Of a stretch of 10,041 nucleotides of DNA, positions 3,292 to 10,041 are shown one piece after another (position 1 is the first letter of the stretch; each line of letters starts with the position of its first letter). The notes below the pieces were generated by a model, which worked only from the letters and a program-made list of their open reading frames with translations, was not told the origin of the DNA and searched no databases. The DNA comes from Fibrobacterota bacterium (GTDB lineage Bacteria > Fibrobacterota > Fibrobacteria > UBA11236). Both the position numbers and the translations under genes were made by a program. Location: contig JAYUVP010000114.1 in the NCBI GenBank assembly GCA_043753995.1, forward strand, positions 1 through 10,041, written 5' to 3'.

Positions 3292-5025
3292 CTACTCCGT
3301 TCTCGGCTTTCCCGTTTTGTCGCAGGAATAAAAAGACTTCCAACCTGCTACGGGTTTTAGACCCTTGCCCTCCACCCAATCGCTCCAGGCGCAGGTGGGC
3401 ATGCAGCAGTCTTGCATGGTGGTGGTATGGTATTGATCATTCGGACCGGTAAAGGTTCCATTGGCTCCCGCTTGGGCCGGGGTTTGCACGGCAGGCAAGG
3501 GTAATGGCAAGGTTTCCTCTTGCAAGCGGCAGCCGGTGACGCGCGTTAGGTTTTCGGGGCATTGCACGCGCTTGGCGCGGACTTTCCAGTTTTGGTGGTA
3601 GAGCGATTCCACCTGATTGGTTTGCAGACAGGATTTACGGGTATCGGTGGTCACTTCGGCCGATACACTTTGGGCTTGGTTGCATTGTTGCGTAATGGTT
3701 TCTCGGCATTGCGCGGACTTTAACCCAGCGGCCGTAGGTGGCCACGCAGTTCCGGTGCAGACAGGGTAGCGCAGAAAGGAAATGCCTCCCGACCCCGGAT
3801 TTTGCCAGGGAAAACCTTGGTATAGGAATTCATTGAACTTCGTCGTATTGCCGAAGGCGGGGTCATTATAACAGGAGTTGAAGGCGCCATATCCACCGGC
3901 GCCCATAAAGATGTCGAAGCCTTTCGGGCCGCTGGCAGCGGTATTAAAGCTTTGCACCACCATGGCTTTGGGTTGCGGCAACTCAGGGAATTGCGGGGAA
4001 CTGGGCTCGGGAGTTTCGAAGATGAGTTGATAGCATTGGCAACAGCTGCTGCTATTGTTGTCCAAGCCGCCCACATCGGCGTCATGCCCTACCACACCGT
4101 ATTGAAAAGGGGGATTGCTTCCGTCACCCCAGCCATATTGGCGGGCATCGTCCTTGGTGGCTTGCGTCATGGCGGAGCTGTACATCATGAAGCGCGGACA
4201 GATGAAGTTTTTAGGCAGATCGCCTTTGGAAGGATCTTCGGGTGGGGAGCAGGAATTAGCCACTCGGCATTCCCCGCCGCAAGCGGAATTGCGATCTCCC
4301 GCGATGCAGCCCTTGGCATAGAATTGGTTCATGCAACCATTAGGAGGATTCAGTTTATAATCCGTCACGGAAGGATCAAGTGATAGTATGAATTGGATGC
4401 CACTCACCTGTCCCGCAGTCAAGACGAGGGTAGCAGGCAAGTAGCCGGCCTTCGAGGCGATGAGGGTGTCTCCCGTAGCTCCCATTTTCGCGGCGGCGCG
4501 AGTGGAGGACAACGGGCCTGCGAATACAAGCTCTCCGGTTTTCGAATGGCTCGACACTTGAAAGGGAAGGGAGGATTCCTCGACGCCGATGTGGGCTTTA
4601 ATGAGATAAAGCCCGGGCGACAATTTGTGCTGGGCTGGGTGGACTTGGTAATTCCCGGCATTCATCCTTTTGCTGACCAAAGTTTTGAGCTTCCGTCCTT
4701 CGGTGCTGTAAAGACCTATTTCGACGAATGAATTCAGGCCGACCACCGAATAGGACAGGACGTCCTGTTGCCATCGGAGGGGGCTGGCCTTCATGGCTCT
4801 CGGTTGCAGACCCGTCGGTATCAGGGTCCAACTTCCATCGGTCCCAGTGGTGGCTGTTTTGCCCGTGGGGGCATGGGTGACAAGAGCGCCCGCGAGCCCA
4901 GCCCCGGATGGGTCCTTGACGAAACCGCTGAGAGTTTGAGCCACGGCCCCTGCCGCTAGGAAAAGGGCCAGACCGCTGGCCAAAATCATTCGGGAAGGTA
5001 TTGTAAAGAGCGAAGCAAAAACCAA
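3292..5025 (-). CDS. Secreted glycoside hydrolase family 45-like endoglucanase (circularly permuted catalytic domain) with N-terminal Ig/carboxypeptidase-regulatory-like modules
   Basis: Signal peptide MILASGLALFLAAGAVA-Q (alternative ATG at 4989; the TTG at 5025 has GGGGGA upstream). GH45 motifs are SSCCQCYQLIF, KAMVVQSFNT, GFDIFMGAGGYGAFNSC, KRVQCPENLTRVTGCR and TTTMQDCCMPTCAW. The catalytic region is Cys-rich. Confidence 0.85.
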   Translation of the reverse strand: MVFASLFTIPSRMILASGLALFLAAGAVAQTLSGFVKDPSGAGLAGALVTHAPTGKTATTGTDGSWTLIPTGLQPRAMKASPLRWQQDVLSYSVVGLNSFVEIGLYSTEGRKLKTLVSKRMNAGNYQVHPAQHKLSPGLYLIKAHIGVEESSLPFQVSSHSKTGELVFAGPLSSTRAAAKMGATGDTLIASKAGYLPATLVLTAGQVSGIQFILSLDPSVTDYKLNPPNGCMNQFYAKGCIAGDRNSACGGECRVANSCSPPEDPSKGDLPKNFICPRFMMYSSAMTQATKDDARQYGWGDGSNPPFQYGVVGHDADVGGLDNNSSSCCQCYQLIFETPEPSSPQFPELPQPKAMVVQSFNTAASGPKGFDIFMGAGGYGAFNSCYNDPAFGNTTKFNEFLYQGFPWQNPGSGGISFLRYPVCTGTAWPPTAAGLKSAQCRETITQQCNQAQSVSAEVTTDTRKSCLQTNQVESLYHQNWKVRAKRVQCPENLTRVTGCRLQEETLPLPLPAVQTPAQAGANGTFTGPNDQYHTTTMQDCCMPTCAWSDWVEGKGLKPVAGWKSFYSCDKTGKPRTE

Positions 5026-5256: not shown

Positions 5257-6873
5257 ATGAGTCTACCTAATATATTAAGGGTCTTTTCCCGCTTGGCTAT
5301 ACACCGTAAGGTCTTGGCCATGGGCGGTCTTTTCTTAATAGCTTTTGTAATATTCGTATCCTTTTCTTTGAATACTTTCAATACGGTCAAGGTGCGAGGG
5401 CCCTATTATGCTGCTATAGTGCAAAGTAAGGATTTGATTGCGGATATCCTACCGCCTCCCGAATATTTGATTGAGTCGTACCTCAATATATTGGAATTGG
5501 CATATGAAAAGGATGCGACCCAATTGCCTAGGCTCATCGAAAAGAGTCAAAGCCTGCGAAAAGATTTTACAACTCGACATGATTTCTGGTTGGTTGATTT
5601 GCCTGAAGGCGAAATCAAAAATCTTTTAATGCAAAACGCCTACTCACCCGGCATGGAAATGCTGAAATTGCGAGACGATTCCTTTATACCCCTTATTCAA
5701 AAAGGGGATACCGCCGGTGCCAGAAAACTTGCACAAGGAGAACTCAAGGCAAAATACCAGGAGCATCGGGCGGCCATTGATCGCATCGTCAGCCTTAGTA
5801 ATGAAAAATACCTGGCCGATGAAAAGGCAGCGGACATTATCATTACTCGCCGCACCTGGATGCTTGCCGGCCTCGGAGTCGGAGTGGTGCTGGCTGTCTT
5901 AGCCCTCAGCGGTTTTGTGAGCAGCCAAATCAAGGCCATAATTGAGAACAGCATTGCCGCACTGAACCGCGTGGCGGAAGGTGATTTGACGGTCAAGATG
6001 AATAATCAAAACCTCGGCGAAGCCCAAGCGATGGACGCGGCAATAGAACGCGCCACACTTTCAGTACGCAACATTTTGAATGAGATCACAGAATGCTCAA
6101 CCAAGCTTTTGGATCGACTTGTCGATCTTAAATTAGTGAACGCGGAGTTGTCGCAATCCACCGCAACCACCCATACCAAGGCTCATACCTGCAACCAATC
6201 GGCTCAGTTGGTGGACGAGAACTTGCAAACCATCGCTTCAGCCTCACAAGAACTCCAGGCGACCATCACCGAAATCGCGAAACAAACCAATCATGCCACC
6301 TCTATTACGGACAAAGCGAAGGTTATGTCCCTTCAATCGAATCAATTGGTGAAGCATCTCAATGAAAGCAGCCAAAATATTGGCGGTATTTTGCAGTTAA
6401 TCAAAAGCATTTCTGAACAGACTAATTTACTGGCATTAAATGCCACGATAGAAGCCGCACGGGCTGGGGAAATGGGTAAAGGTTTTGCCGTTGTGGCGCA
6501 TGAAGTGAAAGAATTGGCCATGCAAAGTTCAAACGCCAGCGAGCAAGTCAGCGTCACCGTGCAATCGATTCAGGCAGATAGCAGCACGGTCATGGAAAGC
6601 ATTTCTAACATCCTTCAAATTATTGGCCAGATCAATGCCGTACAAGGTGAGGTTGCAAGCGCTGTCGAAGAGCAGACGGCAACCACGGCCGAAATCTCCC
6701 GTAATATTACCGAAGCAGCGCAAGGCAGCCGAGACATCACCTTAAGCATATCCGAGGTGGCGGGCTCGGCACAGAAGGCCAATGTCAGCCTCAGCCATAC
6801 CTTGACAGGTGCCAATCACCTTGGCGACATCGCGGGCGAACTAAAAGGACTAGTGAGTCGTTTTCGTATTTGA
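5257..6873 (+). CDS. Methyl-accepting chemotaxis protein (transmembrane chemoreceptor)
   Basis: TM1 [16 protein letters not shown]; helical periplasmic domain with [21 protein letters not shown]2 [25 protein letters not shown]-like [10 protein letters not shown]; conserved hairpin tip [37 protein letters not shown]; methylation-like AVEEQTATT. The start could instead be the ATG at 5320. Confidence 0.95.
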
Positions 6874-7008: not shown

Positions 7009-7191
7009 ATTAAAATCACTACTCTTGAGATTTTTGCAGTATCTGAATCCGATTTGACTGCGCCGCAGCTTTCTGCTGGAAAGCGTCGATAATGCTTACA
7101 TACGAAACCATTTATTACGGAGGATAGCCGAAAGAAACATCCTGGCGCTAAAATCCGAGTAGTACTTTCGTGACTGAAACGGAGTGTTCAT

Positions 7192-7893
7192 TTGCAAGTC
7201 GAACGTGTTCTCGATATTTTACGAGAAGTTTTCTCGAAGCTCGCTATCGAGGAGCCGTCTTTCGCGAATCCGCCGTCAAACATTTCGTCTGAAACAAGCT
7301 TAGATGCCCTGCATGTGACCGAGGCCAATGTGGGTGATTTCGCCCGCGAATTACGTTACCGCTTGGGCGGTACGGCTCTCAATGTCGAGCTCATGTACCT
7401 CATGCAAAAGGCCGTCCAGGCCACTTCATCGAATTTGAGCCATTACCATACCCTCGGCGATGTCGCCAAGCATATTCAGGCCAGCCTGCATCACGGCATA
7501 CCCAATCCCATGGTGGTCTATGTCGATGATGAGGAGGAAAACCTTTTCGTTTTCCGCCGCAAGTACGGCAAGCGTCTCAACCTCAAGACTTTTTCCGATC
7601 CGCTTGAAGCCTTGTCCTTCATCTCCCGAAGCCCCGAAACGGTATTGGTTTTAACCGATGAGGTGATGCCGGGCATGACGGGTAACCAGCTATGCGACGA
7701 GGCACACAAGACGCGGCCATTTCTCAAGTTCATACTCATCACGGGCAACCCCGCAGGCGACGATAATTTGTTGCATCGCTCCCTGCGCCATGGCCGCTTT
7801 TACGATTTCATCAACAAGCCACTCGATTTCGACGGCAAGGGCGAAGAGTATTTCGACACCATGAGCCGCGTCTTGTCGGGGGATTATTTCTAA
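7192..7893 (+). CDS. Response regulator: N-terminal ACP-like domain + C-terminal receiver (REC) domain (paralog 1)
   Basis: TTG start with GGAG RBS at 7181-7184. REC motifs are VVYVDDE, LVLTDEVMPGMTG (phospho-acceptor D156), FILITG and FINKP. The N-terminal ~100 aa resemble an ACP (VLDILREVF...ISSETSLDALHVTEA...TLGDVAKHI). No DNA-binding domain. Confidence 0.85.
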   Translation: MQVERVLDILREVFSKLAIEEPSFANPPSNISSETSLDALHVTEANVGDFARELRYRLGGTALNVELMYLMQKAVQATSSNLSHYHTLGDVAKHIQASLHHGIPNPMVVYVDDEEENLFVFRRKYGKRLNLKTFSDPLEALSFISRSPETVLVLTDEVMPGMTGNQLCDEAHKTRPFLKFILITGNPAGDDNLLHRSLRHGRFYDFINKPLDFDGKGEEYFDTMSRVLSGDYF

Positions 7894-7954: not shown

Positions 7955-9172
7955 ATGCAAGACCCATACTCCACAGGTGATCGAAAGCCGTCCACTGTGA
8001 ACGGCCCGACTTGGTTCGAAACCACTATGAACGAATACCTCGTGCGGTTTCGTGCCTATGAGCCGTTTCCCTTTGATCAACCGCCCGACACCCACAATTA
8101 TTTGAGCTTGCACCAAAACGACTACCTACGCTTGAGTGGACACCCCGAAGTCAACTACGCAAAAAATCAGTCCATTTCCAGGTCTGGGGGCGGTCCCATG
8201 GCCTCCATCACCTATGGTGGCGACACGGGCGAGCACCAGCAATTTCGGTTGGCCCTACAAAAGACATTGAATGTGGGCGACGTCATGCTCACGACAGCAG
8301 GCTGGACTGCCAATGTGGGCTTGGTGGAATCCCTTGCCTCACCCAATACTCCCGTATACCTCGACTACCAGGCGCATGCCTCCTTGTGGGATGGGGCCAA
8401 ATTGGCTGGCGCTAAAATGGTACCGGTGCGCCACAACTCGCCCGCCCACCTCGAACAACGCATCAAACGCTATGGCAAAGGCTTGGTATGCATCGACGCC
8501 TTTTACAGCACCGACGGCTGCGTGCCCGACTTGAAGCGCTATGTCGAAATTTGCGAGGCCTATGATTGCATGCTCATTCTCGACGAGGCCCATTCTTTCG
8601 GCATGATAGGTCCGAATGGCGGAGGGCTCGCGGTCGAACTCGGGCTGGAAACGCGAGTGCCCATACGCACGGTGAGCATGAGCAAGGCTTTGGGCGGCAA
8701 TGGCGGCTTCATCGCCGCCACCGAAGAGGTGGTCTGGTTTCTCAAGCACCGCGCCCGCTCGGTGGTCTTCAGCTCAAGCCCGTCGCCAGCCACTTCGGCA
8801 GGCTCGCTGGCCGCCCTGCAAATCGCCATTCGCGAGCCGGAGCGGGCTCGGAATTGCCTCGAAATGGGGGCCTTGCTGCGCAAATCTCTTATTGGACGAC
8901 AAATCGATCCCGGCCTCAGCGCAAGCCAGATCATTTCCCTGTATTTCGATCAAGACCCTTTGGCGGCGAAGTTTTACGGCTTGTTGCGCCAGCGGGGAAT
9001 TTTGGCTTCGGTATTCACGGCACCGGCTGTGCCACGCGACACCAGCTTGGCGCGCTTTTCCATCCACAGCGACACGACGCCCGAGGACATGGTCAAGCTC
9101 GCCGATGCCTCAGCCGAATGCCTGGCCATAATGGGAGTCAGGGCTACTCCCCCTTACAGTCTCCTCGATTGA
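7955..9172 (+). CDS. PLP-dependent alpha-oxoamine synthase family enzyme, CqsA/LqsA-like (putative alpha-hydroxyketone autoinducer synthase)
   Basis: Family motifs are NDYLRL, DEAHSFG and SMSKALGG (PLP lysine K244). CqsA-like segments are GWTANVGL, PNTPVYLDYQAHASLWDGA, RYGKGLVCIDAFYSTDG, SQIISL and SVFTAPA. The family call is firm; the CqsA-like subfamily call is moderate. Confidence 0.8.
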   Translation: MQDPYSTGDRKPSTVNGPTWFETTMNEYLVRFRAYEPFPFDQPPDTHNYLSLHQNDYLRLSGHPEVNYAKNQSISRSGGGPMASITYGGDTGEHQQFRLALQKTLNVGDVMLTTAGWTANVGLVESLASPNTPVYLDYQAHASLWDGAKLAGAKMVPVRHNSPAHLEQRIKRYGKGLVCIDAFYSTDGCVPDLKRYVEICEAYDCMLILDEAHSFGMIGPNGGGLAVELGLETRVPIRTVSMSKALGGNGGFIAATEEVVWFLKHRARSVVFSSSPSPATSAGSLAALQIAIREPERARNCLEMGALLRKSLIGRQIDPGLSASQIISLYFDQDPLAAKFYGLLRQRGILASVFTAPAVPRDTSLARFSIHSDTTPEDMVKLADASAECLAIMGVRATPPYSLLD

Positions 9173-9226: not shown

Positions 9227-9898
9227 ATGAACAGCCAACAAGCCTATGCCATCCTTCGCGAAATCGTGGCGGCCCTGGCCGCGCGTGGGGAAACCACCAA
9301 GTTACTCCCCGAGGCCCCGCAACTCGAAAAAACCCTGCATGAGCAAGGGGTGGATCTCACCGCCTTTTCCGAACTCATCGAAGAGCTGACCCAGCGCTTT
9401 CACGGCAAGGATTTTCGCCTGAACGGTTATCTAATACCCGAGGAATACTATTACCTCACTACAGCCAAGCTTGTCGATGCGGTGGCTTTGGCATTCAAAG
9501 CTGGCACAAAAAACCCCTTGGTCGTCTATGTCGATGACGAGGAAGAGAACCTCTTCATTTTCAATCGCAAGTTCGGCAAGAAGCTGAATCTCAAGACCTT
9601 TGGCGACCCCCGCACTGCGCTCGAATATATCCGGAGCAGCGAGGAAGTCGGTTTAGTCGTGACCGACGAGGTCATGCCGGGCATGTCAGGAAATGAATTG
9701 TGCGACGCCGTGCACGCGACCAAGCCCCTGATGAAGTTCATCCTCATTACCGGCAATCCCAATAGCGACGGCGATCTTATGTACCGGGCCCTACGCAAAA
9801 ACCGTTTCTACGAATTCATCAATAAGCCCGTCGACTTTGATGGCAAGGGCGAGGAATACCTGAACCTCATCCAGGGCATTCTCGAATTCGATTGGTGA
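9227..9898 (+). CDS. Response regulator: N-terminal ACP-like domain + C-terminal receiver (REC) domain (paralog 2)
   Basis: REC motifs are VVYVDDE, LVVTDEVMPGMSG (D147), FILITG and FINKP. The N-terminal region AYAILREIV...EKTLHEQGVDLTAFSELIEELTQRF...LTTAKLVDAV follows the ACP helical pattern. Confidence 0.88.
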   Translation: MNSQQAYAILREIVAALAARGETTKLLPEAPQLEKTLHEQGVDLTAFSELIEELTQRFHGKDFRLNGYLIPEEYYYLTTAKLVDAVALAFKAGTKNPLVVYVDDEEENLFIFNRKFGKKLNLKTFGDPRTALEYIRSSEEVGLVVTDEVMPGMSGNELCDAVHATKPLMKFILITGNPNSDGDLMYRALRKNRFYEFINKPVDFDGKGEEYLNLIQGILEFDW

Positions 9899-9907
9899 GA
9901 AGGGGGT

Positions 9908-10041
9908 TTAGAGAGGCCCCTTGCGAGGAAATCGCAAGGCGAAGGTGCTGCCGACCCCGACCCGGGATTCTACCGAAAGGGCGCTGCCGTATTTCTTCAC
10001 AATCTCGCTAGCGATGGTGAGCCCGAGGCCGGTGCCCTTGC
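9908..10041 (-). CDS. Sensor histidine kinase, C-terminal end of the HATPase domain (partial; rest lies beyond the window)
   Basis: Manual translation of the minus strand from 10039 gives KGTGLGLTIASEIVKKYGSALSVESRVGVGSTFALRFPRKGPL*. This has the G2 box GTGLGL and terminal GxGSTF strand typical of HATPase_c; TAA at 9908-9910. Confidence 0.9.
   Translation of the reverse strand, partial: KGTGLGLTIASEIVKKYGSALSVESRVGVGSTFALRFPRKGPL

Follow-up and report, generated by a model that had tools for sequence, protein, structure and literature searches.

Serine-less acyl carrier protein-like domains fused to receivers beside an alpha-oxoamine synthase gene in Fibrobacterota

What can a response regulator control when the only domain attached to its receiver resembles an acyl carrier protein (ACP) and lacks the serine that carries phosphopantetheine? 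The question is raised by two paralogous genes in a stretch of Fibrobacterota DNA of 10,041 nucleotides (the window), which is the whole of one contig (JAYUVP010000114.1, here C114) of a 5.2-Mb genome in 356 contigs (GCA_043753995.1, here G000); close homologues bear the names Fibrobacteria or Fibrobacterota. On the forward strand, paralog 1 (7192-7893; 233 amino acids, TTG start), a PLP-dependent, CqsA-like alpha-oxoamine synthase of 405 amino acids (7955-9172) and paralog 2 (9227-9898; 223 amino acids) follow one another, separated by 61 and 54 nt. In the final 134 bases of the window (9908-10041, reverse strand) lies the 3' end of a GAF histidine kinase gene, including its G2 box (KGTGLGL...), which converges on paralog 2. 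The first-pass annotation proposed that the two paralogs are ACP mimics that dock on the neighbouring synthase or bind an acyl ligand, placing the synthesis of a signal under phosphorylation control.

Two further genes of the window lie 5' of this row. A methyl-accepting chemotaxis protein, whose periplasmic domain has no assigned family, is encoded at 5257-6873 (forward strand), outside the conserved cassette described below. A secreted Cys-rich protein is encoded at 3292-5025 (reverse strand), and its weak GH45 match (27 bits) falls in a region that comes after carboxypeptidase-regulatory-like and sorting-type domains.

The claim of an ACP-like fold originally rested on short motifs: paralog 2 reads TLHEQGVDLTAFSELIEELTQRF, with Leu44 directly after Asp43, and paralog 1 reads SLDALHVTEANVGDF, with Glu44 and, at residues 87-95, the TLGDVAKHI terminal helix that had been singled out as typical of ACPs. 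Searches with the individual sequences returned little: Pfam at E<=1 gave Response_reg alone for both paralogs, NCBIfam likewise showed nothing of the N-terminal part, an Atlas search with residues 1-92 gave no match, and BLASTP did not align the N-terminal domain (N-domain) of paralog 1 with that of paralog 2 (19% identity in alignment A3). The family to which they belong comprises at least 326 proteins, the best 120 of which were used, and alignment A3 contains the N-domain only, from 58 sequences. When the A3 profile was compared with the PDB, the ACP NodF ranked first (E=3.1e-4, positions 1-91) and was the sole match below 0.001, with the Leu44 column placed on the NodF serine; carrier proteins or domains made up the top 8 rows and 12 of the 20 rows overall. 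Matches to PF00550 at E<=1 were obtained for 20 of the 58 family members (best 5e-5), and, in the reciprocal direction, an HMM of 82 DS-bearing ACPs ranked family members just after the true ACPs (best E 5.8e-8). Against 1.84 billion representatives, the A3 profile ranked the family first and then mostly carrier domains of the PKS type. Of the 42 matches, 20 are members of the family or pieces of them, and the other 22 are long proteins of several domains; among the 11 of these that were inspected, 7 have GxDS, 3 are ACP-like variants and 1 is unrelated. The all-length profile search revealed no further architecture of the family beyond fragments. A carrier domain within a 3400-aa protein (P0135, residues 1515-1548) reads GFDAAAFSEL and is Ser-less, resembling the type-A motif discussed below.

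Structure prediction points the same way. The AlphaFold2 model of the paralog 2 N-domain (pLDDT 88) has helices at residues 3-19, 44-57, 66-74 and 79-92, helix II beginning at residue 44. Its best VIA-align match is the Thermotoga maritima ACP 1vku (rmsd 2.3 A, 82 residues aligned), with a Z of 9.8 that sits under the caution line of about 13 for helical bundles in that program; of the 50 rows, 42 belong to carrier proteins or to synthases that bear a carrier, and 8 to chains from organellar complexes. Foldseek with the same model returned no match at E<=0.001, and fold searches with the full-length model recovered receivers only. Because a Z of 9.8 is modest alone and Foldseek was empty, the fold call rests on the agreement of sequence and structure, by which the N-domain is homologous to the carrier proteins (PF00550) and has their predicted four-helix fold, much as had been surmised. 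The domain starts at 9227 as first annotated, but its end had been placed too early, at 9496, since it reaches about 9505; in paralog 1 it covers about 7192-7503, and the helix III region is 9 aa longer. The full-length AlphaFold2 model has a low pTM (0.59), though the domains are well predicted, so that no fixed arrangement of the N-domain relative to the receiver is predicted.

The phosphopantetheine-serine column is occupied by Leu44 in paralog 2 (9356-9358) and by Glu44 in paralog 1 (7321-7323), as had been recognized from the letters, and a survey of homologues for a retained DS motif gave a nearly uniform answer. Of 268 distinct family sequences (2 with gaps), only 1 has a serine in the attachment column, and 265 of the 266 with a residue there have a different one. 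The exception, P0375, has GITS, in which the Asp is missing, and its near kin do not share the serine. In p1-type rows (the clade of paralog 1), the column holds Asp or Glu in 82 of 98. A shifted register, in which the T or S that types B and D have at position 46 would be the attachment residue, was ruled out by the GxD anchor and by the alignments with NodF and with an ACP from locus L198 (see below), and also because types A, S and p1 mostly have no hydroxyl at 46. With the defining serine missing, these proteins are not ACPs. D43 is kept in 114 of 122 rows and E/D49 in 121 of 122; E53 is retained as well, but R57 is invariant in the family where AcpP has an acidic residue. Types A, B, D and S have a mean net charge of about -5, but that of the p1 clade is close to neutral (mean -1.3).

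The receivers of both window proteins exceed the Pfam cut-off (PF00072), and D103, D104, D147, T175 and K200 show no variation in either set of rows (122 of 122 and 61 of 61), which upholds the claim that the ACP-like domain is fused to an intact receiver. In paralog 2 the receiver occupies 9515-9898, with DD103-104, Asp147 (codon 9665-9667), Thr175, Phe197 and Lys200 all in place; the phospho-Asp of paralog 1 is Asp156 (codon 7657-7659). Neither paralog contains a domain besides the ACP-fold domain and the receiver, confirming the reported absence of a DNA-binding output domain.

A convergent GAF kinase gene lies within 1.3 kb downstream of 12 of 43 non-p1 genes, the window included, and the kinase is a candidate cognate kinase of paralog 2. 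The rest of the window kinase (its first 634 residues) terminates contig C85 (L170:4670-6571), where two FeeM-type GNAT genes and a heme-oxygenase-like gene lie beyond it; matching gene order in L004, L012 and L070 indicates that C85 probably joins C114. Over the longer interval L170:469-6571, the GAF histidine kinase gene is divergent from PilZ-GNAT, heme-oxygenase-like and PilZ-FeeM genes. This set is present in 20 of the 32 genomes of the family of G000 (f1) and is possibly a second lipid-signal system; the N-terminal domain of the C85 kinase has no assigned family and looks V4R/HNOB-like by eye.

A search of 296 Fibrobacterota genomes recovered the N-domain in 22, 18 of them in family f1 (G254 counted), and 63 distinct genes were mapped from 61 loci. 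The recurring cassette consists of a cyclase gene, a p1 gene, a convergent cyclase gene, a divergent synthase gene, a paralog-2-type gene and the convergent GAF kinase gene, beyond which lie PilZ-GNAT, heme-oxygenase-like and FeeM-type genes. In f1, each of the 16 synthase genes recovered from such cassettes (5 of type A, 9 of type B and 2 of type D) has a family gene starting no more than 70 nt past the end of the match, and leaving out G254 gives 15 of 15. Among the 43 distinct non-p1 genes, 27 lie behind a synthase gene on the same strand (in one case a fragment), 5 stand before a SnoaL-like gene, 2 are near a type-A synthase gene on the opposite strand, 2 have a flank too short to judge, and 7 have no synthase within an upstream flank of 4.5-8 kb. 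The copies coupled to a SnoaL-like gene represent a fourth subtype with the motif GLDPLLLPD (L007:9884-10938, L022:8244-11484, L025, L027, L029), in which some loci hold a fatty-acid desaturase or an epimerase-type SDR; this subtype is possibly a decoy for a lipid-tailoring enzyme. Another recurrent feature downstream of the cassette is a tandem of proteins of about 450 aa that match neither Pfam nor NCBIfam (L010:8793-11536, L013:5582-8427, L074:8869-12654).

The synthase slot is filled by any of three enzymes that are 20-26% identical to each other: CqsA-like (type A), SPT/BioF-like (type B) and PRK07505-like (type D), none of them above an NCBIfam cut-off. The window enzyme is of type A; its best family is PRK07179/NF005526 (298 bits against a cut-off of 428, with Vibrio and Cupriavidus controls at 655 and 581 bits), it scores 189 bits for CqsA and 157 for SPT, and it is 31% identical to a Vibrio CqsA. 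The alpha-oxoamine synthase catalytic residues His141, Asp210, His213, the PLP lysine Lys244 (codon 8684-8686) and Arg367 are invariant. The product is probably an acyl amino-ketone or hydroxyketone, which would be read by the CqsS-like cyclases described below. A type-A synthase without any family gene occurs in six genomes of family f8, and this argues that the putative decoy is accessory, as expected of a regulator, and not essential for the enzyme. In f8 (L191:3391-5202, L193:291-1982, L195:1-1626) the type-A synthase gene is convergent with that of a membrane hybrid kinase, an arrangement that corresponds to the classical cqsAS layout with no pseudo-ACP gene; in 3 of the 5 f8 loci read, the synthase has next to it a hybrid kinase whose membrane part shows weak to clear similarity.

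Three loci from families f13 and f17 bear on the acyl donor, each having a DS-bearing ACP gene and an AMP-ligase gene near a type-A synthase gene and a family gene (L197:5781-12789, L198:8628-19674 and L199:13223-16953). In L197 the order on one strand is cyclase, ACP, ligase, radical SAM enzyme, synthase and putative decoy; L198 has ACP, ligase, synthase and decoy in one cluster, again with a radical SAM enzyme; and in L199 the ACP, ligase and synthase genes share one strand, with the decoy gene divergent. The ACPs of L197 and L198 exceed the PF00550 cut-off. This gene content suggests a modified acyl chain and an acyl-ACP donor. The putative decoy resembles the dedicated ACP of L198 only weakly (hhalign E 0.021, 18% identity), and a Phe three residues past the Ser in 2 of the 3 ACPs, like F47 of the type-A decoys, is only a lead. 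A scan of 68 loci with an HMM of DS-bearing ACPs brought up no true ACP in the f1 loci that it covered; the 7-8 ACPs of G000, and likewise its AMP-ligases, lie outside the window. Characterised CqsA takes acyl-CoA (PMC3376566).

The cyclases of the f1 cassettes are PF00211 enzymes with intact cyclase motifs, fused to a sensor of six transmembrane segments (6TM). We take these motifs to be those of ATP-specific class IIIb enzymes. In Vibrio, Cupriavidus and Ralstonia, kinases encoded next to cqsA-like genes match a profile of the 6TM part at 34-45 bits (E 6e-8 to 3e-11); the best unrelated segment among 40,741 scored 10 bits. NCBIfam, the PDB and a plasmid search gave no useful match to the cyclase 6TM region, and the Atlas gave MASE-type leads only. 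Of the residues defined as contacting the CAI-1 headgroup (PMC13729885), the sensor has R47 in 23 of 23 and S103 in 20 of 23 sequences, and W33 is replaced (by Glu in 15 of 23). At E<=1e-8 the sensor occurs in 16 of the 296 genomes, all among the 22 with the pseudo-ACP family. Three such cyclases are encoded elsewhere in G000 (L167:5275-6828 on C191, L168:2801-4375 on C283 and L169:4601-6136 on C235), and further sensor-cyclases occur at L006:2095-3666 and 20 related loci.

The family proteins were also compared with the type of synthase beside them. Between synthase types the N-domains are only 22-28% identical, and within types 40-61%, whereas the corresponding values for the receiver are 64-66% and 66-84%; the N-domain evolves faster than the receiver. 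For the 27 synthase-linked genes, the N-domain tree requires 2 changes of synthase label, which is the minimum (shuffled mean 11.7), and the receiver tree 4. Distances for 24 pairs (three of the 27 were omitted for partial synthases) correlate with rho 0.79 between synthase and N-domain and 0.20 between synthase and receiver, and the partial correlation of synthase and N-domain is 0.78, a value reached in 0 of 2000 permutations. Locus L004 has a type-A N-domain, yet its receiver is nested among those of type B (support 87). No such sorting is seen for the sensor of the cyclase encoded on the opposite flank of the synthase gene (type B takes 5 changes, and 123 of 500 shuffles were as low), and the idea that each sensor is specific to its synthase type is accordingly not supported. 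The type-specific residues of the N-domain fall at 44-48, at the start of helix II: F47 in 11 of 11 type-A, T46 and P48 in 12 of 12 type-B and Q48 in 4 of 4 type-D sequences. Helix II has been called the "recognition helix" of ACPs (PMC9386255).

Several observations temper this result. Among type-B pairs alone, receiver and N-domain follow the synthase equally well (partial correlation 0.60 each); with the receiver data, monophyly of type B is not rejected by the AU test (p-AU 0.073); and in the full, careful tree of 61 rows, types A and B take 4 and 5 changes and are not single clades. Related sequences are also not independent of one another, and the N-domain adjoins the synthase gene, so that part of the co-sorting could reflect co-transfer. 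An attempt to link conserved basic residues in the synthase with the decoy failed because the comparison was confounded by kinship.

The reading that best accommodates these findings is that paralog 2 is a phosphorylation-switched, Ser-less ACP decoy of its synthase, for which we would claim about an even chance of being correct. In this model the convergent GAF kinase would phosphorylate Asp147 of paralog 2, and phosphorylation might expose or dimerise the decoy. The decoy, having no acyl arm, would dock at the acyl-donor entrance of the synthase and compete with the acyl donor, two decoys fitting the two entrances of the synthase dimer, and such docking would set the rate of signal synthesis. 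That it is the phosphorylated form which inhibits is a weak guess as to direction, and a doubtful one. The model draws on the homology to ACPs, the loss of the serine, the intact receiver, the order of synthase and then regulator, and the co-sorting of the N-domain. It also has a precedent in the reported binding of CqsA to the RecL and Rec domains of CqsS (PMC13729885). Against the model stand the seven non-p1 genes that have no synthase upstream and the five paired with a SnoaL-like gene; the use of acyl-CoA by characterised CqsA and the lack of a true ACP in the f1 loci examined; and the weak similarity to the L198 ACP, the invariant R57, and the fact that most of the CqsA residues contacting CqsS are not conserved in the window synthase.

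A second explanation is that the ACP-like domain binds some other protein of the circuit, such as the cyclase, the GAF kinase, a FeeM-type acyltransferase or the heme-oxygenase-like enzyme. As a general account this seems rather unlikely; for paralog 1 and the orphan copies it is the leading one. The p1-type genes form one clade (support 100/99), start with GTG or TTG in 17 of 20 cases, and encode proteins of near-neutral charge with a conserved NVELMYRMQK segment and a conserved helix-III insertion. Their nearest recognised neighbour is a cyclase gene in 14 of 20. Genomes G264 and G265 (100% complete) have a p1-type gene as their only family gene, along with FeeM-type and kinase genes, and no synthase of type A, B or D was found in them with the queries used. 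Two p1-type proteins (P0146 and P0150) have lost the phospho-Asp of the receiver but retain both the ACP-like domain and, at the C terminus, the G-[DN]-[YF]-F ending. FeeM works with a dedicated ACP. Because the p1 clade is separate and persists without a synthase, paralog 1 probably has another partner, and it is likely to use the same trick on it. The cyclase cannot be that partner universally, since its sensor was not found in G264 and G265 with the query used. As applied to paralog 2, binding to some other circuit protein leaves the sorting of the N-domain with synthase type unexplained, and G255 and G260 have FeeM-type genes but no family gene. The proposed pairing with the neighbouring synthase has good but indirect support for paralog 2, from the 16 of 16 gene order, the co-sorting, and the ACP and ligase genes near the synthase in other families, and it is not supported for paralog 1.

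The p1-type genes are also set apart by a conserved upstream motif, GAGTAGTACTTT at 7157-7168 (forward strand) in the window. The motif is of the form GAGTAGT, often with GCCGTC next to it, and lies 20-45 nt upstream of the gene; a loose pattern matches 11 of 19 p1-type upstream regions and 3 of 43 others, and the motif is likely to be a promoter element. Patterns for CRP, sigma-54 and sigma-28 were looked for in front of the p1 and synthase genes and not found, and scans for promoters and terminators did no better than chance.

The direction of information flow could also be reversed, with the ACP fold serving as an input domain whose cavity binds an acyl signal or intermediate non-covalently and tunes phosphorylation of a receiver that has a CheY-type output. 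ACPs are able to sequester acyl chains in a central cavity, co-sorting could then reflect the chemistry of the product, and the alpha4-beta5 surface of the receiver is highly invariant (L184, L189, R193, F194), as one might expect if it had a target of its own. This explanation is unlikely, in that the residues which vary with synthase type sit where helix II begins, on the partner-binding surface. Strongly type-specific products are also argued against by the cyclase sensors, which are the likely receptors and are not sorted by synthase type.

The same pairing evidence that favors a decoy would be shared by a positive adaptor, which docks on the synthase and activates it, recruits it to a membrane receptor, or hands over a non-covalently held acyl chain. 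The CqsS-CqsA complex, proposed to localise or regulate CqsA, offers a precedent, and effects of both signs are mentioned for receptor-synthase pairs in that source (PMC13729885). A protein with no phosphopantetheine cannot deliver a thioester, though, and the six f8 genomes run a type-A synthase without a family gene, so that an adaptor of this kind appears improbable. It is very improbable indeed that the N-domain is a structural or dimerisation module with no specific partner that sorts by genetic hitch-hiking, since its evolving faster than the receiver and its position next to the synthase gene must be set against its type-specific, invariant surface motifs, the 16 of 16 gene order, and the failure of the equally linked cyclase to co-sort.

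Returning to paralog 2 as a decoy, a broader picture can be drawn for this Fibrobacterota lineage, tentatively and with somewhat less confidence than the decoy itself: interchangeable acyl amino-ketone synthases, each gated directly by its own phosphorylation-switched, Ser-less decoy, would feed natural sensor-cyclases of the CqsS type in a new form of quorum sensing that leads to cAMP and has its synthase under post-translational control. No description of an ACP-receiver fusion was found in the non-subscription literature searched. If the model is true, a carrier-mimic output would be a new route to two-component control of an acyl-transfer enzyme and one of the rare cases in which an autoinducer synthase is controlled directly at the post-translational level. 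With a putative decoy for each of the three synthase types, the family provides a specificity matrix for ACP recognition by alpha-oxoamine synthases. The ligands of 6TM cyclase anchors, a long-open question, become directly testable at these loci, where the linked cyclases are an apparent natural counterpart of an engineered CqsS-cyclase chimera (PMC4821796), with a candidate ligand-making enzyme adjoining.

Compared with known ACPs (PF00550; NodF 1fh1, T. maritima 1vku, AcpM), the family shares the four-helix fold, the L-x3-G-x-D before helix II, a Glu at the position of E41, the T-x-G-D start of helix IV and, in the paralog-2 types, the acidic charge; it differs in the missing serine (265 of 266), the invariant Arg57 and the fusion to a receiver. 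A closer analogy for the whole protein may be PhyR, in which an N-terminal, non-functional mimic domain precedes a C-terminal receiver and the protein binds another once phosphorylated. By this analogy the paralogs could work as mimic-output response regulators, except that PhyR mimics a sigma factor, and here the mimic is of a carrier protein and the likely target is an enzyme.

The AcpR/AasR/SPT system of Rhodobacteria resembles L197-L199 in that genes for a dedicated ACP and an acyl-ACP synthetase accompany an alpha-oxoamine synthase gene; AcpR is described as a loaded substrate carrier, whereas the loci described here have an extra, unloadable copy on a receiver, and a synthase that is CqsA-like (PMC9386255). 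The Vibrio CqsA/CqsS and Legionella LqsA/LqsS/LqsR systems, as described, share with these loci a CqsA-like synthase, a 6TM sensor of the CqsS kind and a response regulator that has no DNA-binding domain, and they supply a precedent for contact between synthase and receiver (PMC3376566; PMC13729885). Unlike in those systems, the synthase falls under the PRK07179 cut-off and the 6TM sensor in f1 is carried by a class III cyclase, not a kinase. LqsR is reported to have an N-terminal receiver and an unrelated C-terminal part (PMC3376566; PMC13729885); in the present family the receiver stands at the C terminus, and an ACP-fold domain is the output. Finally, the engineered CqsS-Rv1625c chimera also has a CqsS-type 6TM domain driving a class III adenylate cyclase; that protein is artificial and the CqsS cluster described with it consists of sensory His-kinases, whereas the fusions found here are natural and stand beside a synthase gene (PMC4821796).
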